Shown here piece by piece: positions 7,314-21,668 of a stretch of DNA of 22,857 nucleotides; position 1 is the stretch's first letter; each line of letters opens with the position of its first letter. Origin of the DNA: a virus. Its lineage: Duplodnaviria > Heunggongvirae > Uroviricota > Caudoviricetes. The notes beneath the pieces are model-generated. The model made no database searches. It was given only the letters and a program-made list of their open reading frames with translations, and was not told where the DNA came from. A program made the position numbers and the translations under genes. The stretch is from the IMG/VR virus record IMGVR_UViG_3300028887_000098; one strand, written 5' to 3'.

Positions 7314-7339
7314 AAAAGCAGTGAAAAATCACTGCTTTT
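7314..7339. terminator. Bidirectional intrinsic terminator
   Basis: AAAAGCAGTGA-aaaa-TCACTGCTTTT between convergent genes; contains the gp62 TGA stop. Confidence 0.85.
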
Positions 7340-7754
7340 TATTATACACAAATTTTATATAATCTGCCCATTTTGTTTTTAAAATATTTCTTTGAGCGTC
7401 ATTTAATAATTCATTATATCGTTTAGCTTCTTTGGTACCAATATTGTATTCTTTCTTTAATGCAATAATCAAATCTTGGTCAACTGTTTCTGTTTTATAT
7501 GCTTCATAGTTAAAATAATGTTTAGTTTTCTTAACCCAAGTATATAAAACAGTATAATGCTGTTGATTTGTTAATTTTTGAATAGTCAATTCATTAATTA
7601 ATGGTAACAAATATTCATAACTTGATAAAAATCTATTTAATATGAACTGATTATATGCTGATTTATATTCATCTGGCAGATTAGTCCAATCATACTTTTT
7701 TGTGCAGATTGAACTTAATATTTCAAAGATTGGATTTTTCTTCTTTTCAGTCAT
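7329..7754 (-). CDS. gp62: Sliding-clamp loader small subunit (T4 gp62-like)
   Basis: YNQFILNRFLS...INEL...QHYTVLYTWVKKTKHY...ALKKEYNIGTKEAKRYNELL matches the gp62-family pattern. Confidence 0.8.
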   Translation of the reverse strand: MTEKKKNPIFEILSSICTKKYDWTNLPDEYKSAYNQFILNRFLSSYEYLLPLINELTIQKLTNQQHYTVLYTWVKKTKHYFNYEAYKTETVDQDLIIALKKEYNIGTKEAKRYNELLNDAQRNILKTKWADYIKFVYNKKQ

Positions 7755-11576: not shown

Positions 11577-12170
11577 TTAGTTATCATCTCCATAAGGGTC
11601 ATCGATAGTATTAAGATTTTCATAGAAATCCAAACCAGCGATTTCCTTTTCATTTCTTTCATTCATTTCAGAAAGATATAAATTCAAAGCGTTAGTAATA
11701 AGCTGAGTAACGAATGCGAATGCACTAGAATTTCGAGTTTCGTCATATCTGTTAATATAGGTAAATAAAGTCATTAGTGCTTCTTGACGAATATCATCGA
11801 TTTCTTCATACGCAGGAGATTGAACGAGTTTAAACGAAATAATACGACCATTGATAACCTTGATGAATGCATCACAAATATCTTTCTTGACCTGTTCGAA
11901 TTCCATATTAAACTTATGTCTTTCTTCAGGAGTCATTGTATTATAACGTTCGTGCAAAGCCTTGATTTCTTCACGCTTGCGCTGAATAAAATCTTTAGAG
12001 ACTTCATACTTGTCTTCTGTAATACTCTTTTTATTATTCTTGTTTTCAAGTTTACGTTCGTATGCGTCGCACCATTCACCTGTATCATTGATATTCATCT
12101 TATTAAACTTAACGACCAATTCGCGTAAATATTTATTTGATATGTAACCTTCACCTTTTTCTTGTTTCAT
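11577..12170 (-). CDS. gp55: Late-transcription sigma factor (T4 gp55-like)
   Basis: YISNKYL N-terminus and DDIRQEALMTLFTYINRYDETRNSSAFAFVTQLITNA match the gp55 pattern; many TATAAATA promoters occur in the window. Confidence 0.8.
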   Translation of the reverse strand: MKQEKGEGYISNKYLRELVVKFNKMNINDTGEWCDAYERKLENKNNKKSITEDKYEVSKDFIQRKREEIKALHERYNTMTPEERHKFNMEFEQVKKDICDAFIKVINGRIISFKLVQSPAYEEIDDIRQEALMTLFTYINRYDETRNSSAFAFVTQLITNALNLYLSEMNERNEKEIAGLDFYENLNTIDDPYGDDN

Positions 12171-12256: not shown

Positions 12257-13198
12257 TTATAAGTGCGGCATGCTAGGCATTGATGGCTTCGTAGCATGAG
12301 GAATATTCGGCATTTGAGACTTTGCTTTTGCAATTTCTTTATTATTTGCCTCATTTTCTTCTTCAATCATCTTATTGATAATTTGTTGTTCTGCTTCTAC
12401 TTCAACCCAAGCCCATTCATTTGTTATCTGTAAATTTGAATACTTTGCAATCCTTGTGATAGTTTCAAGAATCTGTAATAAGTCAACTTTACTAAATAAA
12501 TTCTTATCACTGATTTCAATTTTTACATTATGTGTTTTACCACATTTTGGACAAGAAATTGTAAAATCTTTTTTAACACCACAATAATTGTCTGCTATAT
12601 GTGCTTTTAAAATTATAAAGTCATTAGCTGTTAAATTACTAATAAAAGAGTATTTTTCTTCCATTGTATTAGCGGTATCAATGTATAAACATAGTTCATC
12701 AATATCATCATTGATTTCATAAATTGAATCATTATATCTAGGCATTTTGATAGGTAATGTAATACCTAAATCTGGTAGAAATACTTTATTAACAAAAGGA
12801 TGATCTAGATATACAAATTCTAAGTCGACTAATTTAATAATATGTTCTATTCTTGACTTACAACCAGAACATGATGGAATGATTACAGTAAAACCATTAC
12901 CGTTAATAAAACTATTCAATCTAATCCAGAAAATAATAAATTCTCTATCAGCTAAAACCAATTCTTCATATTTTAAATTTTCAAGAATAGTGCATTTTTC
13001 GATAAGTTCATTACAAATATCTGTTGCATTTTCTTCTCTTAAAGAAGCAAGATATTTTACTTCAAGAACAGTCATTGAACGTGCTTTTATCTTTGCATTC
13101 TTCGAATATAAAACACCTTTTGATGGCAATTCATTTAAATCGATTTGCCAGAAGTTGAACATATCATAATTATGCATTATATTATTTGTTGTTTTCAT
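12257..13198 (-). CDS. Baseplate hub subunit (gp26-like), possibly with gp51-like C-terminal module
   Basis: ELPSKG...RSMTVLEVKYL...LADREFIIFWIRLNS...CSGC...CPKCG. The true start may be ATG 13177 or 13162. Confidence 0.7.
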   Translation of the reverse strand: MKTTNNIMHNYDMFNFWQIDLNELPSKGVLYSKNAKIKARSMTVLEVKYLASLREENATDICNELIEKCTILENLKYEELVLADREFIIFWIRLNSFINGNGFTVIIPSCSGCKSRIEHIIKLVDLEFVYLDHPFVNKVFLPDLGITLPIKMPRYNDSIYEINDDIDELCLYIDTANTMEEKYSFISNLTANDFIILKAHIADNYCGVKKDFTISCPKCGKTHNVKIEISDKNLFSKVDLLQILETITRIAKYSNLQITNEWAWVEVEAEQQIINKMIEEENEANNKEIAKAKSQMPNIPHATKPSMPSMPHL

Positions 13199-13868
13199 CG
13201 TTATTATCTCCAGGATCCGCTAATAATTTTACAGTTGCAGTTCCATTAAATATACCGCCGCCAGGAGTAGTTCCTACTGCGACACCAGTCATTGGAGGCG
13301 ATGTAGTTATTGCTTTCTTTAAAAAATTTTCAAATTCAGTCCAAAATGCCTTAAATGTATCTGGACTTTCTGGTGGTTCTGTTTTTATTCTATTAATGAA
13401 TTTTTCACCAAAAACATAAAAATGCGGAGTAGGAACTCCACTAGGAATAGTACCCGTAATCATAATAGGATTTACATATGCGCCAGCAGATATTCCTAAA
13501 AATTTTGGCCATAATGCAGATGTAGTTGACCAATTAATTGTTGCCTGTGTAATTTTTATTCCAATGTAATTAAAAATCATCGGAAATATTTTTTCCTGAA
13601 ATGTAGAAAATGCTTTTAAATCAGTAGGGTTTATATTAAGAGATTCTGCTATAGGTTTTAAACCATTATAATAAAATGGTGTACTAACACCCAAAAGCTG
13701 AGGATAAGTAACTACTCCAGCAACAGAACCATATTGAATAATTAACCTTCTATCAAACCATTCATTTAGTGCATTTGCAAGAATATTATAAAATGTTCCT
13801 GGTGGCGATGTACTACTTAATGTTTTTAATTTTGGATATATTAAACTATAAATTGATGAGAATTCCAT
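13182..13868 (-). CDS. Hypothetical protein (Pro/Gly/Thr-rich, probable structural)
   Basis: 228-aa ORF with TAATG coupling to the terminase C-half. Confidence 0.75.
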   Translation of the reverse strand: MEFSSIYSLIYPKLKTLSSTSPPGTFYNILANALNEWFDRRLIIQYGSVAGVVTYPQLLGVSTPFYYNGLKPIAESLNINPTDLKAFSTFQEKIFPMIFNYIGIKITQATINWSTTSALWPKFLGISAGAYVNPIMITGTIPSGVPTPHFYVFGEKFINRIKTEPPESPDTFKAFWTEFENFLKKAITTSPPMTGVAVGTTPGGGIFNGTATVKLLADPGDNNDENNK

Positions 13869-14923
13869 TATTTAAAGTCACTCCAGAAATCATCGTTATA
13901 TTCCATTGCATCAGCCATCATATCGACTGTCATATTACTTATTTCTTTTGTCACTTCTTTAATCTTGATATTGTCCATATCAATTTCTGGTTGCAATGTT
14001 GCGTAAACTGCCCAATACAAAGCTGAAACAGTATCGTCGTGATTTCCTTTTGCCGCTTTAAAGACGTTTGGTGATTGTTCTTCAAATCTTGAAAGTTCTG
14101 AAATTGTAACACCATCATGAATTGTAAGAATTTCAGCATCAATAACTCTCTGTAATTCAAGACATGCGTCAAGCTTAGAACGCTTATCAGATTTAGTTCC
14201 TAATCCTTTACCTGCTTTTTCAGTATTTAAAAGATTTGGATTTTCAAGAGTATACCAAATTTCTTCTACAACTTGTTTACCTGGGTCATTATTTTCGATA
14301 ATGAACGAAGCATCGTTATACATTTTTGAAACTTTATCGATAATTCTAGCAAATTCACCAGGTTTTACCGTATTGGAACGATAAGTAGCAACTTGTTCCA
14401 TGTGATATTTGTCTTTAATTTCAATAACCTGAATGCAAGCATAGTCACCACCAACACCTGCACAAGGGTCACATCCCATCAAATAGAAATGTCCTGCTTC
14501 TGGTCTTTTATAAATTGAAAATGACAAATCTTCAAATTGAACTTCTACAGGTTCCATTTCAACAAGTTTTTCAAGAACGTTACCGCTAATCAAAGTGTTA
14601 GAAGAACCAATGAATGAACAGTTATGATGAATAATTCCATTCGTTGTTTCATATAATGCACCGTCGATATTAAGTGGAGTATAAACAGTCTTGACTCCTA
14701 CTTCTTCTATTTGAAGTACTCTACTTATCCCAAATGTATTGTTTTTGACTGTAGAACCACGTTTAAGATCTTTTGCATATACATCCTGATTTTCAGGACT
14801 CTTAAATCTATGGTCTAATGAACAAGTAATTTCAGAATTATCAAATATAATATGTATTGATTCAGCAGTTTTTTTCTGAAATCCATCAAATTTTTTAAAG
14901 GTGTCACCAATCTTAATAAGCAT
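13868..14923 (-). CDS. gp17: Split terminase large subunit, C-half: IntC (101 aa) fused to the gp17 nuclease domain (250 aa)
   Basis: The extein begins CSFIGSSNTLI (gp17 C-x-F-x-G-S-x-N-T-L-I) and contains YLMGCDPCAG, IIENNDPG and KGNHDDTVSAL RNase H-fold motifs. The N-terminal 101 aa are intein-like. Probable start ATG 14923; the extension to 14995 reads through promoter DNA. Confidence 0.9.
   Translation of the reverse strand: MLIKIGDTFKKFDGFQKKTAESIHIIFDNSEITCSLDHRFKSPENQDVYAKDLKRGSTVKNNTFGISRVLQIEEVGVKTVYTPLNIDGALYETTNGIIHHNCSFIGSSNTLISGNVLEKLVEMEPVEVQFEDLSFSIYKRPEAGHFYLMGCDPCAGVGGDYACIQVIEIKDKYHMEQVATYRSNTVKPGEFARIIDKVSKMYNDASFIIENNDPGKQVVEEIWYTLENPNLLNTEKAGKGLGTKSDKRSKLDACLELQRVIDAEILTIHDGVTISELSRFEEQSPNVFKAAKGNHDDTVSALYWAVYATLQPEIDMDNIKIKEVTKEISNMTVDMMADAMEYNDDFWSDFK
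14621..14923 (-). mobile_element. C-terminal fragment of an atypically split intein (TerL-type IntC)
   Basis: Block B-like TCSLDHRF, AKDLKRG, block F-like VYTPLNIDGALY, block G TNGIIHHN then +1 Cys (codon 14618-14620). No block A Cys1 segment upstream. Confidence 0.85.
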
Positions 14924-14957
14924 AATAATCTCGATAAAATAAACAGAATATTTTATA

Positions 14958-14965
14958 TATTTATA
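14958..14965 (-). promoter_or_regulatory. T4-type late promoter TATAAATA (for IntC-gp17C)
   Basis: Exact consensus 34 nt upstream of ATG 14923; back-to-back with the plus-strand promoter. Confidence 0.7.
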
Positions 14966-14976
14966 ACAAGTAAAAC

Positions 14977-14984
14977 TATAAATA
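14977..14984 (+). promoter_or_regulatory. T4-type late promoter TATAAATA
   Basis: Exact consensus followed by AAAAGGA and ATG 15013. Confidence 0.75.
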
Positions 14985-15012
14985 TTATAAAACAATTAAA
15001 AGGATTTAAAAT

Positions 15013-16359
15013 ATGTTAAATTTAGATGTAACTCCTGCAAAAATGAGCTGTGAAGAAATCAAGTCATGGCTTACAGAATGTGCTGCAGAAATTAGCAAGG
15101 CATATGATGAAGACAATATTGCCTATGCAAATAAGCTTGATACAATTTATCAAGTTGTAAAGCAAATGGGCGAAGAAAAATGTAAAAATGAATCTTTTAG
15201 AGGATATTTAAGTTCTTCAATGTTAACTGAATCTGTTACAGAAGAAAGTTCAAATCCTACATATTTAATAGAAGTTGATGAAGCAATTATTTCATTTGAA
15301 GACAAATTGAAAGATTGCGATGTTGAACTTGACGCAAAGGTAACAGTAGACGATAATTTAAATATTATTGATTTTCCACCTATTACAGTTGATATTGGAT
15401 TTAAACTTCCGTATATTGATGAAAAACAGCATATCGTTTTAACATATACTCCTAATGGAATGCCTGAAAATTTAAATATTGACAATATTCCAGCAAAAGA
15501 TTATACTACTAGTCATACTGAAACAGGAACTGTTGTTTCATTCAAATCTCTCGGTAATTTAGCTGATAATCTTGAAGAATTTGAATTTACTGAAACTATT
15601 GAATGGCCATTTGAAATGGATTTCAAATCTGCTACGGTAAAGAAAAAATTTGATAAAATTAAAACTTTATCTGGAAAGATTATTGCTTTGCTTGGTAAAG
15701 ACCAATTAATTAATAAAGTTAGTGGTTATCAGTCTACACACTCTTCTGGTTCTAATAAAGCAACAAGAGCTAAGAGAGAAGCTGAAGCACTTAAAGCAAC
15801 AATTCGTGCACGTGGTCCGTTCAAGTCTAGAACTGAAATTCTTAAAGATACACTTAGTGCAATTCCAGGTATTACTTCTATTGAACAGTTACCTGTTATG
15901 GGTAATCAGCAATATTATACCAAATTCCGTATTACATTCAAGGGTGGTTGGTTTGATGTTTTCAATGGCGGTATGAATTTCAGAGTAATGGACAGTCTTG
16001 GTGGTTTCGGTAATAATCAGGAATTTAGAACTGATCCAAGTGATCCAGATGCATCTGTTACAAAAACACGTAATAAAGTTGTTGCATATATTCAAAAACG
16101 TATGGAAGATATGAAGATTGCAGCATTAAGTCCTAGAGAACGTGCAGCATTAGCAGCAAAGAATAAGCCAAAACAACGCGATTTAACGACTGAATATAAC
16201 GAGTTTATTGAAATGGCTACAAATACCCTTAATGGAACAAATCCAGTTTCCAGAAGCGTCTTATCGGACAAATATGACCATCTCATGTATAGTGAGCGAT
16301 TCTTAACTGATGAGCAAATGACTAAACTTATGGAACTTGTTACAGAGTTAGATATTTAA
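15013..16359 (+). CDS. Hypothetical late protein, probable head/internal protein
   Basis: 448 aa; late promoter and SD; NESFRGYL...MLTESVTEE motif. No homing-endonuclease motif recognised. Confidence 0.75.
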   Translation: MLNLDVTPAKMSCEEIKSWLTECAAEISKAYDEDNIAYANKLDTIYQVVKQMGEEKCKNESFRGYLSSSMLTESVTEESSNPTYLIEVDEAIISFEDKLKDCDVELDAKVTVDDNLNIIDFPPITVDIGFKLPYIDEKQHIVLTYTPNGMPENLNIDNIPAKDYTTSHTETGTVVSFKSLGNLADNLEEFEFTETIEWPFEMDFKSATVKKKFDKIKTLSGKIIALLGKDQLINKVSGYQSTHSSGSNKATRAKREAEALKATIRARGPFKSRTEILKDTLSAIPGITSIEQLPVMGNQQYYTKFRITFKGGWFDVFNGGMNFRVMDSLGGFGNNQEFRTDPSDPDASVTKTRNKVVAYIQKRMEDMKIAALSPRERAALAAKNKPKQRDLTTEYNEFIEMATNTLNGTNPVSRSVLSDKYDHLMYSERFLTDEQMTKLMELVTELDI

Positions 16360-16363
16360 AAAT

Positions 16364-16389
16364 AAAAGCTTGGTTAATTCCAAGCTTTT
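16364..16389 (+). terminator. Intrinsic terminator
   Basis: AAAAGCTTGG-ttaatt-CCAAGCTTTT. Confidence 0.8.
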
Positions 16390-16397
16390 TAATATAA

Positions 16398-16429
16398 AAA
16401 AATATGTGAACAAAAGTTCACATATTTTT
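16398..16429 (-). terminator. Intrinsic terminator (second of a tandem pair between convergent genes)
   Basis: AAAAATATGTGAAC-aaaa-GTTCACATATTTTT. Confidence 0.8.
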
Positions 16430-16447
16430 ATTTTCTCCTAAAAACTA

Positions 16448-17746
16448 TTAGATAGAACCGTAATCAGTTAATCTTGCAGCAACATCGAGGAAACTGTCAT
16501 AAGATTCTTCAGTTTCAACTGTTTCTTTAAGAATTCTGCCACCTAAGCGATTTGCACGTCTTGATTCAGCAACTTCGGCTGGTGCTTCATCATTGAGGAA
16601 TTCTCCTTCGTCAACAACTTCATATTCAGCACCATTATTATCTAATGTACTCTGAATTGCATCCAACTTATTAGCTGGAGCAGTAATAAGAATATATGGT
16701 CCATTGACTTCAGAAGAAACATCAAAGCTTGGTAAAATGTCTTCGATAACAACTTGAACATCATTTGCATTTGCAAACTTTAAGCAACGATTTTCATCAG
16801 CTGGTGCTTCTGGAGCTTGTGCTGCTGGGTTAACGAATTCACCAAAGTCAGCGAGAACTCTCTTTGCAACGTCAACGTTTTTCTTTCTACCGACATTTCT
16901 AATTGTAAATGTTCCGTCTTCATTTTCAGTATAATCAACTTCATTACTATTAAGTCTTGTTCTGATACGTAATGGCGAAACACCTTCATTTGGCTTAAAT
17001 ACTGCAATTCTACCAGATGTAAGCTGATTATTAGCATTATCACCAGTTGCAATATCAAGCTTGACATATAAACCGTTGACTTTTTCTTTTTCTTCTGCAG
17101 TAAGTTCTGCTTCACGTGCGGCTAATGCATCAATACGTGCTCTAATTTCATCTGCATTGTTACCACCGCGTCTGAAAGAAGAAATAGAAGAACTAATACG
17201 TCTAATAATATCTGATGGCGTAAGAGCACCATCATCGCGAGAATGAGTTGTTCTTGCTTGTCCTTCATCAGTCCAACGACCTTGTGGAATACCATCACCT
17301 TCTTCAACACATTGGTTGATATATGCACGTTCTTTCTGCAATTCGCTTAAATATTCCTGATTACCAGATTCTGGGAATGCTGCAAGAGCTGCATCAAAGT
17401 TAGCCAAAAGCGTTTCTGCGGTCTTTTGAGACATACCCTTACTATTAGCACTCTTGAAGTCATTTTCAACCTTAGAAAGTGCTTCAGCAACGCCAAATTC
17501 CTTGCTTGCACCTCTAACTGTTAAATTGACTGTACCGGCATTTTCAAGACCGCTAAAAGAACCAGTATAACGACCATTAAAACGTGCCATTTCAGAAAGA
17601 ATCTGATATGCCTTTGTTCTTGTTGCATTACGAGATTCCATAGATTCCATTAAATCCTTGACGGTTTTCTTAAAATCATCTTTAGATTTAGTATTAACTG
17701 AGTAACCTACAGAACCTAAAATTTTCTTTGCTTCGTTTAATTCCAT
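16448..17746 (-). CDS. Hypothetical late protein, probable head/internal protein
   Basis: 432 aa; MELNEAKKIL N-terminus, LMES and LKET motifs; late promoter and AGGAG SD. Confidence 0.75.
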   Translation of the reverse strand: MELNEAKKILGSVGYSVNTKSKDDFKKTVKDLMESMESRNATRTKAYQILSEMARFNGRYTGSFSGLENAGTVNLTVRGASKEFGVAEALSKVENDFKSANSKGMSQKTAETLLANFDAALAAFPESGNQEYLSELQKERAYINQCVEEGDGIPQGRWTDEGQARTTHSRDDGALTPSDIIRRISSSISSFRRGGNNADEIRARIDALAAREAELTAEEKEKVNGLYVKLDIATGDNANNQLTSGRIAVFKPNEGVSPLRIRTRLNSNEVDYTENEDGTFTIRNVGRKKNVDVAKRVLADFGEFVNPAAQAPEAPADENRCLKFANANDVQVVIEDILPSFDVSSEVNGPYILITAPANKLDAIQSTLDNNGAEYEVVDEGEFLNDEAPAEVAESRRANRLGGRILKETVETEESYDSFLDVAARLTDYGSI

Positions 17747-17789: not shown

Positions 17790-18191
17790 TTATTCAGAAA
17801 TATTATTAATATTGAATTTTCTGACTTTTTTATAATTAATTGCATCATTATGAGAAACAATATCAAATTTTGTTCTGTGCGGCACAATTTCATTCATATC
17901 GTTGATAGAAATCATATGCCATTTTATTAGCCATAATGCAATAGAATTACGTCTTTCTAAATCTTCTAATGATACGTTACCAAAACCATGATAGCCGTTT
18001 TTGCCAGTTGTTAATGTAAATAATTGTTTAAAATGAACTAAATAATAAGTATCAAATTGCTTTAATAAATGACAAGATTGATAAATTATTTTATTTTTCT
18101 TATCAACAATTCCCATTCTGGACAATGTTTCTTTAATAACATTTGGATCTACCAGTAGCTTCACTTCTAATAATTTATTTGTTTGAAACAT
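17790..18191 (-). CDS. regA: Translational repressor RegA
   Basis: IKETLSRMGI...IYQSCHLL...YYLVHFK...EDLERRNSIALWLIKW closely follows T4 RegA. Confidence 0.92.
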   Translation of the reverse strand: MFQTNKLLEVKLLVDPNVIKETLSRMGIVDKKNKIIYQSCHLLKQFDTYYLVHFKQLFTLTTGKNGYHGFGNVSLEDLERRNSIALWLIKWHMISINDMNEIVPHRTKFDIVSHNDAINYKKVRKFNINNISE

Positions 18192-18679: not shown

Positions 18680-19471
18680 TTACTTGATTTTCGGTAAGAA
18701 GAACGATGGAACAAATGGCATTGGCAAGATAATTTCTTCACCACAAGATTCGCACTTGAACTTTGCAATCGGTTTTGCACTGAAAAGTAATTCACTCATT
18801 TCATTTGTAAAATGACTGAAGCTCTTTGCATCAAGGTCACAGATATATTCATATGCCTTATATAACGATAGCTTAGTATCATTGACTTTGTAAATATAGC
18901 TAGAAAGTTCCAAAAGTTCTGGATTAATTTCAAGAATGATATTTTGGTCATTCTTTAAACGATTAATTGCACCTTCTGTACTAATTGTCGGATACGTGAT
19001 TGTAATTTTATCTTCATTTGGTAATTCGATATATTCTGGAACGTCCTTATCAAGATAAGTAACATCAAGATTCTTAAGGAAGAACTTATAATTTTTAATG
19101 TTACCACAATTATTGCAAGTTCCACGAAGAATAAATGGAATATCATCGTATGTAAAAGCACGAAGATAATAAATTAACCAAATCTTGTCACCTACAAGAA
19201 TTTTATTTGTATCAATACCCCAAATACAAGAGGCAAGAACGTTATTAATTACATTATTAATATTATTTTCATTAATTGTAGCAAGATTTTTAATATTTAA
19301 TGTATTTAATTTCTTTACATAAATTGGATCTGTATAGAATTTACCTCTTGATGGTAATAAATTCTTATCTAACATTACAGATCCTTTAGGTGGTTGATTA
19401 TTTATTTCTTGTGAAATAACTCCAACATTCCCTTGATTAATATTATTAAGATCTAACTTTTCTGATTTCAT
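18680..19471 (-). CDS. Baseplate hub subunit (gp26-like), second paralog
   Basis: LLPSRGKFY...LVGDKIWLIYYLRAFTY...CNNCG...ITYPT...CESCG; same architecture as 12257-13198. Confidence 0.7.
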   Translation of the reverse strand: MKSEKLDLNNINQGNVGVISQEINNQPPKGSVMLDKNLLPSRGKFYTDPIYVKKLNTLNIKNLATINENNINNVINNVLASCIWGIDTNKILVGDKIWLIYYLRAFTYDDIPFILRGTCNNCGNIKNYKFFLKNLDVTYLDKDVPEYIELPNEDKITITYPTISTEGAINRLKNDQNIILEINPELLELSSYIYKVNDTKLSLYKAYEYICDLDAKSFSHFTNEMSELLFSAKPIAKFKCESCGEEIILPMPFVPSFFLPKIK

Positions 19472-19503
19472 ATTTTCACCTTTATTAAATTAAACATTTT
19501 ATA

Positions 19504-19511
19504 TATTTATA
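19504..19511 (-). promoter_or_regulatory. T4-type late promoter TATAAATA
   Basis: Exact consensus 32 nt upstream of ATG 19471, with SD AAAGGTG. Confidence 0.7.
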
Positions 19512-19519
19512 TACATTAA

Positions 19520-19845
19520 ATATATCTATACTCACACGTTCAAATATCTGTAGAGACAATAAGCCTATTTAGGAAAATAGGCAAAAGACATCTGTCTTCG
19601 ACTAAGTGGATTTACAAACAAGCTTGCGGGTCGGTCATCCTGTACTCCGATTTCATCTTGTTCAACCAATGGCGGCTAAATGTATTGTTTATTAGGCAAT
19701 ACTTCGATGAACTTTCCATTATCTGTTAATACCAGATCATATTACTGAAAGATGTCGTTCTTACATCTTTAATGGCTTACCCTCTACCGACAGTTCCATT
19801 GAGTTGGTCTTCGCTCCGAGGAATAAGACTTGGAATTTATGGAAT
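19520..19845. ncRNA. Putative structured non-coding RNA of unknown class
   Basis: No ORF of 60 aa or more; about 40% GC by hand count over 19561-19830 versus very AT-rich spacers elsewhere; at least eight short helices; candidate minus-strand promoter directly adjacent. Strand uncertain. Confidence 0.55.
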
Positions 19846-19876
19846 CAAATATAGATTAATTGTAAATTTTTGTAAA
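19846..19876 (-). promoter_or_regulatory. Sigma70-like promoter pointing into the putative ncRNA
   Basis: TTTACA (19876-19871), 17-nt spacer, TATATT (19853-19848); includes the CTATATTTG motif. Confidence 0.5.
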
Positions 19877-19895
19877 CCCAGATAATATAAAAATT

Positions 19896-21668
19896 CTAAG
19901 AATTCTTAACAGTAGTCATTGTATGACCATATTTTCCAGTTAATCTACCACGACGATCAACAGCATTGCGTTTACCTGCATTTTTACCTTCTTTAATATC
20001 CCATTCTTTATAAAGAACTTTATTCATAGTTTTATCTGTCATCATCTGGTTAACAAATTCTTCAGAGAACTGACCTTTATTCTTTTGTAAGTCAGCAATA
20101 GCTTCTTCTTTATGTGAAGCGAGATATGTTCCAAGTTTTTTAGAAGCACCGCCTGCACCATATTCAAGGTGAGCAACGCCACCAATCGTTGTTGCATCCA
20201 TATTACTGAGGATTTCTTTATCTATATTTGTTTCAAGTTTTGATGCTATGTTAGTCATAGATGCATTTTCAATTCTATTTGTTGAATTTTCATCAAGACG
20301 CCATACAGATTTAACACTAATTGCATTACCTTGTGTTTTTAAAACATTAGTTAAATCTTCCATAGTACCAGTATAACTTTCACCAGTTTTTATATTAATC
20401 ATAGTGAATTTTTCAGCCTTTAATCCAAGACCTTCAAGATAACGTTGCGTATTACCCATACCAAAGTTACCCTTTTGTTTTCCACCATCATCTGGATTCA
20501 TATATACTAAATTACTTGCACCTTCAGCACGACCAGCATTATTAGTTCCAAGAAATTCTGCTTTTGCATATGCTTTAAGATGTTCTATATCTACTGCATT
20601 CATACCAACACCACCTGTAGCTTGAAGCTGTTTACCAGCCATTTTTTGCTTAGGAAATTGAAGAACTACATCTTTTGATTTTTGTGTAGTACTAGATTCT
20701 TTTAATAGATTATTGTATTCAGTATTTAATTTTTCTAAAGCATTTATATTTTCATTAAGATTAGAAAGTAAATCTTCAGTTGCATATTGAGGGTCGACAT
20801 AATCCTTGACCATCTGGGTTAACGTTTTTAATTCTGCATTATTTAAGCCATCATCAAGATTAATGCTACGCATTTTTAATTCCGCATCAAACATTTTTAC
20901 TTGAGATTCTTTTGTTGGATCATAACCCATTGCAATCATAGCCTGTTGAGCTACACCAGCAGAAGTCTTGATTTGCTCAGCTTTCAATACGTCTATTATC
21001 TTACGGTCACGCATCTTCTTATCGAAATCACCCTTGCTCATCTTCTGTCTATCTTCTTCATCAGCAACTGCCTGAGCTTCATTAGTAATTCTTTCATTTT
21101 CTGGAAGTTTTTCACGAATAATGACTCTATAACCGTCTTTTATTTCTTCAAGAACAGTAGGTTCTTCAACAACATAGACTACTTTAAATGTTGCAGAAAT
21201 TTCTATAGGACTTCCATGACCATTATTATTGAATGACGGAGTTCCATATTCTTTTAAACGACAAATATAAGTCTTTTTATCGGAAATAGTTAACATTGTC
21301 TCATCAAATTGAGTAATACGAATATTTAATAAACCACCGTTTACACCTTTAAATAGTTCATTACCCATTAATCCAGAAAGTGTTTTAAAAACACGCATAT
21401 CGTCTGTTTCTTCAAAGGTAATTTCCATTGTTGTATCACCAAATTTTAAAATTGGAACAACAAATACAGTATTACCGAAGTTTAACTTATTTTCAGTATC
21501 TAATTTAAATACTGGTTGACTAATACGTTTTATGGTAAATTCTAATGGTCTGAATATCTTATCATTATTATCATAAGCATTTTGATAATTAGGCCAAATT
21601 TCCGCTTTAAATCTATACGGAATATGTGGTCTCAAAGCCATTGCATTAAATAGATTAATTAAGCCCAT
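19896..21668 (-). CDS. Tail tube-fold (gp48/gp54-like) N-terminal domain, helical linker, and putative lysozyme-like C-terminal domain
   Basis: N-terminus: RPHIPYRF...IKRISQP...LKFGDTTMEITFEETDD...IEISATF. C-terminus: EGASNLVYMNPDDGG...GNFGMG and GGVAHLEYGAG. Confidence 0.6.
   Translation of the reverse strand: MGLINLFNAMALRPHIPYRFKAEIWPNYQNAYDNNDKIFRPLEFTIKRISQPVFKLDTENKLNFGNTVFVVPILKFGDTTMEITFEETDDMRVFKTLSGLMGNELFKGVNGGLLNIRITQFDETMLTISDKKTYICRLKEYGTPSFNNNGHGSPIEISATFKVVYVVEEPTVLEEIKDGYRVIIREKLPENERITNEAQAVADEEDRQKMSKGDFDKKMRDRKIIDVLKAEQIKTSAGVAQQAMIAMGYDPTKESQVKMFDAELKMRSINLDDGLNNAELKTLTQMVKDYVDPQYATEDLLSNLNENINALEKLNTEYNNLLKESSTTQKSKDVVLQFPKQKMAGKQLQATGGVGMNAVDIEHLKAYAKAEFLGTNNAGRAEGASNLVYMNPDDGGKQKGNFGMGNTQRYLEGLGLKAEKFTMINIKTGESYTGTMEDLTNVLKTQGNAISVKSVWRLDENSTNRIENASMTNIASKLETNIDKEILSNMDATTIGGVAHLEYGAGGASKKLGTYLASHKEEAIADLQKNKGQFSEEFVNQMMTDKTMNKVLYKEWDIKEGKNAGKRNAVDRRGRLTGKYGHTMTTVKNS

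Follow-up and report, generated by a model that had tools for sequence, protein, structure and literature searches.

The locus and its setting

What occupies the only long gap in an otherwise tightly packed array of phage genes was the question raised by the interval 19472-19895 of the window, i.e. the whole 22,857-nt stretch analysed here, which belongs to IMG/VR record IMGVR_UViG_3300028887_000098. The first-pass annotation had singled out the only long intergenic region of the window and placed there a structured, GC-enriched RNA with about 40% G+C. With 424 nt it was indeed the sole gap above 150 nt, located between two minus-strand genes (Table 1). The enrichment also stood, with 38.9% G+C in the RNA part compared to 13–23% in the other gaps and 31.2% window-wide, but the figure of 40% did not hold for the interval delimited by the annotation (19520-19876), which had 35.6%.

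The gene content of the window (tail-tube proteins, clamp-loader small subunit, RegA, neck protein and a terminase nuclease domain) was that of a T4-like phage, and the CheckV completeness of ~9% for the 36,968-bp source record placed the genome size near 400 kb. The RegA translational repressor and the clamp-loader small subunit were clearly recognizable at 17790-18191 (-) and 7329-7754 (-), respectively, and a weak Sigma70_r2 match at 11577-12170 (-) marked a candidate for a gp55-like late sigma factor. This T4-like set is consistent with the TATAAATA late promoters ahead of the structural genes.

Identification of the element as cow-rumen-2

The Rfam scan of the entire window produced a single match: RF02947, cow-rumen-2, was recognized on the minus strand at 19708-19603 over model positions 1-106 of 106 with 96.7 bits (E = 9.7e-18), the gathering score of the family being 66 bits. 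The gap element, therefore, belongs to cow-rumen-2 and does not represent a new family. The annotation had suggested a candidate novel RNA of unknown motif, had asked for an Rfam search and had itself named a hit to a known family as removing the novelty; this search, when run, gave such a full-length, above-threshold hit, so the claim of novelty falls, while the more general claim of a structured phage RNA was right. Both unpaired blocks of the model, AGCCGCCA and ACAGGAUGACC, were found in the window and were invariant or nearly so across the homologue alignments, and the model helices (5' hairpin, 13-pair stem and inner hairpin) were kept by compensatory changes among relatives, including the window sequence.

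A permissive Rfam search of 19350-20000 at E<=10 added two chance-level matches only and gave no match to RNase P RNA, group I/II introns, ribozymes, riboswitches, ROOL, GOLLD, HEARO or IS605-orfB; neither tRNA nor tmRNA was detected in the window by ARAGORN. The segment GUCGGUAGAG is reminiscent of a tRNA D-loop, but it is placed in a different fold.

Weinberg et al. 2017 reportedly included cow-rumen-2 among their 224 candidate RNAs. The RF02947 entry is 106 nt long, typed 'Gene; sRNA', and is an orphan with no host, context or function attached. In our literature search it was named by the Rfam 15 paper alone, where it is listed with two additional covarying pairs among the families with improved structure (PMC11701678), and it was absent from the papers on RNA-only assemblies. 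The element described here has in common with the entry the hairpin, the single-stranded AGCCGCCA, the 13-pair stem and the inner hairpin with ACAGGAUGACC. Beyond it, the conserved RNA reaches ~2.7 times the model length by addition of a 5' domain, a three-way junction, a 3' domain, a pseudoknot and a promoter, and the family gains a place as a multi-copy gene of T4-like jumbo phages. The cow-rumen-2 motif thus becomes the centre of a ~290-nt pseudoknotted RNA, a gene of ~400-kb T4-like phages with an early-type promoter; as a family it offers little that is new, and its full architecture is moderately novel.

Extent and secondary structure

Homologues were collected by exact-pattern scans of IMG/VR on conserved blocks, which gave more than 60 loci, and an nhmmer profile and anchored alignments were used, with 29 distinct homologues for the whole RNA and 48 distinct core sequences. 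These 29–48 sequences of IMG/VR phage contigs showed that conservation and covariation continue beyond the Rfam model, for ~130 nt on the 5' side and ~60 nt on the 3' side, and the 5' domain used by itself as a pattern retrieved 61 loci. A second viral pattern was discarded after yielding ~40 chance matches in coding DNA, mostly in one gene of 57-kb phages. No match to the gap was obtained among GenBank phages by blastn; a loose pattern run against prokaryote genomes listed mostly high-G+C chance matches, and the four checked among the matches listed had no Rfam match. Indels in the homologue alignments did not come in threes and the changes were compensatory, which identifies the element as non-coding.

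The conserved structure covers ~19554-19829 on the minus strand and consists of twelve nested helices (Table 1; RNA positions are numbered as n = 19834 minus the window coordinate). The covariation check among homologues that the annotation had proposed was positive: 87.4% of the cells were paired in the 29 homologues in contrast to 33–42% when the 3' partners were slid by 1–3 columns, the covariation score was 0.455 against 0.07–0.10 in the slid controls, and 40 of the 68 pairs had changes on both sides. For the core, 93.8% of the cells were paired, with double-sided changes in 20 of the 24 pairs over the 48 distinct sequences (27–42% of pairing in slid controls). The folding energy of the single sequence, on the other hand, was on par with shuffles for both strands (z = -1.5 and -1.8), so that the structure rests on the comparison of homologues. 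The plus strand, favoured by the annotation because of a few G-U extensions, has to be replaced by the minus strand, since G-U cells exceeded A-C cells by 145 to 39 in the 29 homologues.

Table 1. Coordinates of the cow-rumen-2 RNA, its parts and the neighbouring elements in the window.
Feature	Position	Strand	Remarks
590-aa protein	19896-21668	-	no Pfam or PHROG match; directly upstream of RNA
Promoter	19848..19876	-	-35 TTTACA (19876-19871), 17-nt spacer, -10 TATATT (19853-19848)
Predicted transcript, ~288 nt	~19840 to ~19553	-	both ends predicted
5' domain	19774..19829	-	outside Rfam model; P1, P2, P2a, P3
P1; P2; P2a	n7-10/55-58; n12-16/50-54; n21-23/44-46	-	in 5' domain
Three-way junction	19717..19774	-	P5 (n60-63/114-117) encloses P4 (19770-19748) and P6 (19737-19721)
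Cow-rumen-2 core	19603..19708	-	P7 hairpin, single strand, P8 stem, P9 inner hairpin
PK-A 5' strand	19705..19707 (n127-129)	-	pairs with 19633-19631 (n201-203)
P7 hairpin	19702-19682	-	in core
Invariant single strand UAGCCGCCA	19678-19670	-	in core
P8 long stem	19668-19657 with 19622-19607	-	in core
P9 inner hairpin	19649-19627	-	in core; holds GUACAGGAUGACC
PK-A 3' strand	19631..19633 (n201-203)	-	inside the GTCGGT segment (19630-35) of the first-pass annotation
3' domain	19554..19597	-	outside Rfam model; P10 encloses P11
P10	19597-19593 with 19558-19554	-	long-range helix
P11 hairpin	19582-19563	-	terminator-like; near-invariant CCU and UAGGCU
Box TTGAACGTGTG	19533..19543	-	10-15 nt past last RNA helix; common to many paralogous copies
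TATAAATA	19504..19511	-	33 nt upstream of baseplate-hub-like gene ATG; recurs in homologues
Baseplate-hub-like protein	18680-19471	-	PF12322 / phrog_150 match; next gene downstream of RNA

In the 5' domain, helices 1-2 were 91–94% paired in the 29 homologues, with double changes in P1 and P3; the P3 hairpin loop CAAYYCAAUG is conserved, and the domain also contains the conserved GGAGCGAA and UCGGUAGAGGG. In the three-way junction, both-side changes were present in 7 of 7 pairs of P4, 3 of 5 pairs of P6 and 3 of 4 pairs of P5. In general, the junctions and loops are rich in invariant nucleotides and the helices drift freely.

Four of the helices proposed from the single sequence recurred with compensatory changes in the homologues, i.e. 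19563-70/19575-82 as P11, 19682-87/19697-702 as P7, 19721-25/19733-37 as P6 and 19748-55/19763-70 as P4. The helix 19585-89/19594-98 turned out to be a weakly supported local alternative to P10 with 65% of pairing, while 19668-72/19716-20, 19771-75/19796-800 and 19807-11/19825-29 were paired in 62–82% almost without double changes. These last three make use of the repeat words CCAUU/AAUGG and GUCUU/AAGAC of the window copy, which are not kept in homologues, and the pairings competing with them are better supported, the covarying partners being P5 and P1.

The RNA appeared to be modular. In the L224/L048 type (G005 and the copy at 359.1 kb of the complete genome G003), the core and the 3' domain were kept, while P1–P6 were replaced over the first ~190 nt by an unrelated 5' domain rich in G+C, and P6 was missing in L049, L050 and L022. 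The 5' swap and the P6 losses indicate that the core and the 3' hairpin form the indispensable part.

Pseudoknot within the core

In the scan of all column pairs two adjacent non-nested pairs stood out, both involving the strand just 5' of the core: n127-203 (GC 18, UA 18, AU 5, CG 5 in the 48 core sequences) and n128-202 (CG 33, UA 12, UG 3). The helix formed by them, PK-A, was 97% paired in the same set and uses RF02947 model positions 2-4. This pattern of covariation indicates that PK-A is a true pseudoknot linking the strand just 5' of the core to the 3' side of the inner hairpin. A pseudoknot had been predicted from the single sequence between 19630-35 and 19786-91, and one half of it survived: the segment 19631-33 is knotted, but its partner is 19705-07 and not 19786-91. 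The originally proposed pairing was broken in 8–16 of the 29 sequences wherever a position varies and had the covariation of shuffles.

Three further pairings were rejected: AGGA (n193-196) with UCCU (n260-263), 93% complementary, had one-sided changes only and one uncompensated change, and both CGGU (n45-48) with GCCG (n158-161) and the P3 loop with CCAUUGG were unsupported when compared by eye.

The invariant AGUAC-AGGAU-GACC of the inner hairpin was compared to what we take to be the sarcin-ricin loop sequence, AGUAC-GAGAG-GACC: the two are of equal length and agree in 11 of 14 positions. The sarcin-ricin loop is a bulged-G element of 23S rRNA, and a module of this kind may be present in the inner hairpin, where the Rfam pairing of two G-C pairs and PK-A share some of the nucleotides. 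Bulged-G modules are common in RNA, and the likeness is, therefore, a lead on local shape and not on function.

Promoter, transcript ends and downstream elements

The minus-strand promoter TTTACA-N17-TATATT noticed in the first reading was confirmed, with agreement in 10 of 12 consensus positions, and both hexamers recurred upstream of every homologue in the flanked alignment. GTTTAC corresponds to the -35 form of T4 early promoters, which suggests that host polymerase, not yet modified, transcribes the RNA at an early stage of infection. From the spacing to the -10 hexamer, the transcript would start with an A at ~19840, and the terminator-like P11 together with the last conserved helix strand of P10 (19558-19554), into which the tail pairs back, places the probable 3' end near 19553. 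The length of the 590-aa gene and its position before the early-promoter element recall what is presumably the arrangement of T4 gp5 beside oriE.

P11 followed by UUAUUGU scored as terminator-like in the window, while the U run was missing from most copy types and a usable U tract was present only in the window's type. The box TTGAACGTGTG was followed in different copies by differing genes and stood at a variable distance to the late promoter, other copy types had CCAAAAGAT, and no pairing partner was found for TTGAACGTGTG. The TATAAATA motif, the T4 late-promoter consensus, belongs to the hub gene and not to the RNA.

In copies of the L008/L011/L012 type, four consecutive G+C-rich perfect hairpins were observed ~20–110 nt 3' of the RNA, before the TATAAATA promoter, in an otherwise A+T-rich genome; they may represent several clustered terminators or another structured RNA.

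Copies and genomic neighbourhoods

Three phage genomes of 424, 411 and 416 kb (98–100% complete) contained 4, 3 and 4 copies above the Rfam cut-off, respectively. The nhmmer search with the full-length profile found exactly four copies, at 50.9, 113.0, 273.0 and 359.1 kb, in G003 (415,750 bp), and one copy in the window's own record. The copies within a genome were strongly diverged, with all of the conserved unpaired nucleotides kept. Selection thus keeps 3–4 diverged copies per genome, and, for a viral sequence, conservation of this degree speaks for an important role early in infection.

G003 (IMGVR_UViG_3300028832_000001) is 415,750 bp long with 34.2% G+C and direct terminal repeats. The cumulative GC skew follows the gene-strand blocks, with the maximum at 161 kb and the minimum at 343 kb; the 47 tRNA genes of the genome are located in two cluster regions (292–313 kb and 369–375 kb).

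No recurrent protein was found next to the RNA among the four G003 copies and the divergent copies, and the neighbourhoods pointed to no protein or ligand as its partner; the neighbours included hub, lysozyme-like, RNA ligase, gp46/47-like and DHH phosphoesterase genes. In relatives with as little as 69% identity of the hub protein, the RNA still preceded the hub gene, a sign of vertical inheritance at this locus. The L016/L020/L025 copies are antisense to every neighbouring ORF and are followed by their own hairpin with a U run, which speaks for a stand-alone gene and not for an obligatory leader. The L228 copy has a convergent gene downstream and, likewise, a hairpin with a U run after the RNA.

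Taken with these neighbourhoods, the element is best explained, at a probability of roughly 0.6, as a stand-alone gene for a full-length cow-rumen-2 RNA that would act in trans through its fold. The combination of a host-type early promoter, several copies, a knotted fold and invariant junction and loop nucleotides fits an abundant trans-acting RNA. According to this explanation, the host RNA polymerase would transcribe the RNA early from the GTTTACA/TATATT promoter into a discrete, stable transcript of ~288 nt with its 3' tail tucked into P10, the several copies would serve dosage, and the action would depend on the three-dimensional fold rather than on base-pairing with a target, the RNA either engaging a protein or small ligand, as a partner or as a decoy, or assembling with itself. 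The complement of the invariant 9-mer UAGCCGCCA occurred at chance level in the window, which argues against a base-pairing sRNA.

Possible competition for the 3' strand of P11

A second long-range complementarity suggested a different function. AGCC of the invariant single strand (19677-19674, n157-160) and GGCU of P11 (19565-19562, n269-272) were invariant and 100% complementary in the 29 sequences, and because GGCU always takes part in the local P11 stem as well, the two pairings are mutually exclusive. In this alternative the element would be a cis-acting leader or a riboswitch-like switch: GGCU would be contested by the AGCC in the core and by the P11 5' strand, and it would depend on the state of the core if the early transcript terminates at P11 or continues into the downstream gene. 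Both exclusive pairings are kept, and the 3' strand UAGGCU is invariant with a varying local 5' partner, as expected of a strand with two partners. The divergent members were evenly divided, with two changes keeping or extending the pairing and two breaking it at the end pair: L236 had the end pair changed on both sides (U157 with A272) and L220 an extra C-G pair, while in L257 and L268 the A157 was changed without compensation. The 4-bp helix would also need to displace a part of an 8-bp hairpin.

The neighbourhoods were equally two-sided. About 18 of the ~20 locus types have a same-strand gene 50–250 nt downstream and P11 is terminator-like in the window, and since no clear terminator precedes the next gene, a leader role is possible for most of the co-directional copies. 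A same-strand gene downstream is, however, expected by chance in compact co-directional phage genomes, these genes differ between the copies and have late promoters of their own, no U tract follows P11 in most copy types, and of the copy types mentioned above one is antisense to all of its neighbours and another faces a convergent gene. A switch of this kind is, on balance, unlikely.

Possible relation to replication origins

Another explanation, mentioned already in the first-pass annotation, concerns replication. In this case the primer for leading-strand synthesis would be the early RNA or a 3' extension of it reaching into the A+T-rich tract (19472-19545), and, by analogy with ColE1 RNA II, the RNA fold would govern the formation of the hybrid. 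T4 has R-loop-primer origins, oriF/ori(uvsY), oriG/ori(34) and the early-promoter-dependent oriE, and these share no common motif, the R-loop formation being independent of specific sequences (PMC3016281). The elements studied here resemble them in being several, dispersed and driven by an early or middle promoter, and in the location of some copies at strand switches; they differ in that the cow-rumen-2 element is defined by a conserved fold. The 3–4 dispersed copies each have an early-type promoter, the G003 copy at 113 kb sits exactly on a local minimum of the cumulative GC skew and on a strand switch, with another copy 4 kb from one, and the tract after the RNA in the window is very A+T-rich. 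But no skew turning point lies anywhere near two of the four G003 copies, no iterons were found, some copies precede G+C-rich hairpins and not an unwinding element, and all intergenic DNA in the genome is A+T-rich anyway. The T4 origins lack both a shared motif and a specific RNA sequence, in contrast to the dozens of invariant nucleotides and the covarying pseudoknot of the present element, and this weakens the origin reading, which is improbable.

An extended form of it, even less probable and again modelled on ColE1 RNA II, would have the T4-like jumbo phages use the four dispersed copies, transcribed early, as origin pre-primers that depend on the fold; in these, the fold and the competition between AGCC and P11 for GGCU would decide on the hybridisation of the 3' end to the A+T-rich DNA behind. 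If true, the pre-primer would be a sequence-defined origin RNA in a group whose model, T4, has motif-free origins.

Guide scaffolds, retroelements and introns

A guide scaffold of TnpB/IscB type, a retron or DGR RNA, or a ribozyme or intron remnant might also account for a large structured RNA of this kind, and the annotation had named an orphan guide scaffold and a ribozyme remnant. In size and pseudoknotted complexity the RNA resembles the omega RNAs, and the divergent copy L228, on a 248-kb phage contig, lies 1.1 kb from a gene for a 555-aa TnpB-like protein (L228:1583-3250 (-)) with the OrfB_IS605 and Cas12f1-like TNB domains. This gene, however, is on the opposite strand with its 3' end toward the RNA, and it represents one of more than 20 contexts; no nuclease gene was a consistent neighbour. 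The nuclease domain search was made with PF07282 (TnpB TNB), IscB with its HNH/RuvC being outside of it: PF07282 had no match in G000-G003 and G005, i.e. in the window record and the carriers, including three complete ones, while 8 of 14 controls matched. The reverse transcriptase domain PF00078 (RVT_1) had no match in G000-G003 and G005 either, and the control genomes matched. The RNA is conserved at both ends and lacks a variable guide segment, the window neighbours are structural genes, the flanking genes are intact and separate, and no intron, ribozyme, HEARO or IS605-orfB model matched even at the permissive threshold. All of these classes are, therefore, extremely improbable.

Comparison with large phage-linked RNAs

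The stand-alone, trans-acting RNA, preferred over these alternatives, finds its closest counterparts in ROOL and GOLLD, which form RNA-only homo-oligomeric complexes according to cryo-EM, ROOL being an octameric nanocage (PMC12286853, PMC13622246), and are often located near tRNA genes (PMC5737381). Similar to them, the cow-rumen-2 RNA is a large, intricately folded, phage-linked orphan and an independent gene rather than a leader; ROOL was first seen in cow-rumen data, and both ROOL and GOLLD are often prophage-borne. The differences were also clear: neither of the two was matched in Rfam, the cow-rumen-2 RNA is half their size or less, and its copies are not near tRNAs, none of which was found in 20 loci, with the 47 tRNAs of G003 clustering elsewhere. 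By analogy, the cow-rumen-2 RNA could self-assemble like the ornate RNAs forming RNA-only complexes (PMC12286853). The ~290-nt RNA offers a defined construct for probing, pull-downs and cryo-EM.

Additional observations on the neighbouring genes

The hub-like gene next to the RNA has a paralogue 5.5 kb away, the pair (PF12322 / phrog_150) being located at 18680-19471 (-) and 12257-13198 (-). Between the two, a 375-aa ORF at 13868-14995 (-) carried only the RNaseH-like nuclease domain of the terminase (residues 173-330). It was separated by a 448-aa ORF at 15013-16359 (+), which had no family match, from a 432-aa ORF at 16448-17746 (-), also with no family match. The arrangement over 13868-17746 could represent a split or interrupted large-terminase gene. 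The ORF pair, 448-aa (+) and ~415-aa (-), was also present next to this locus in the complete genome G003 (46372-49057).
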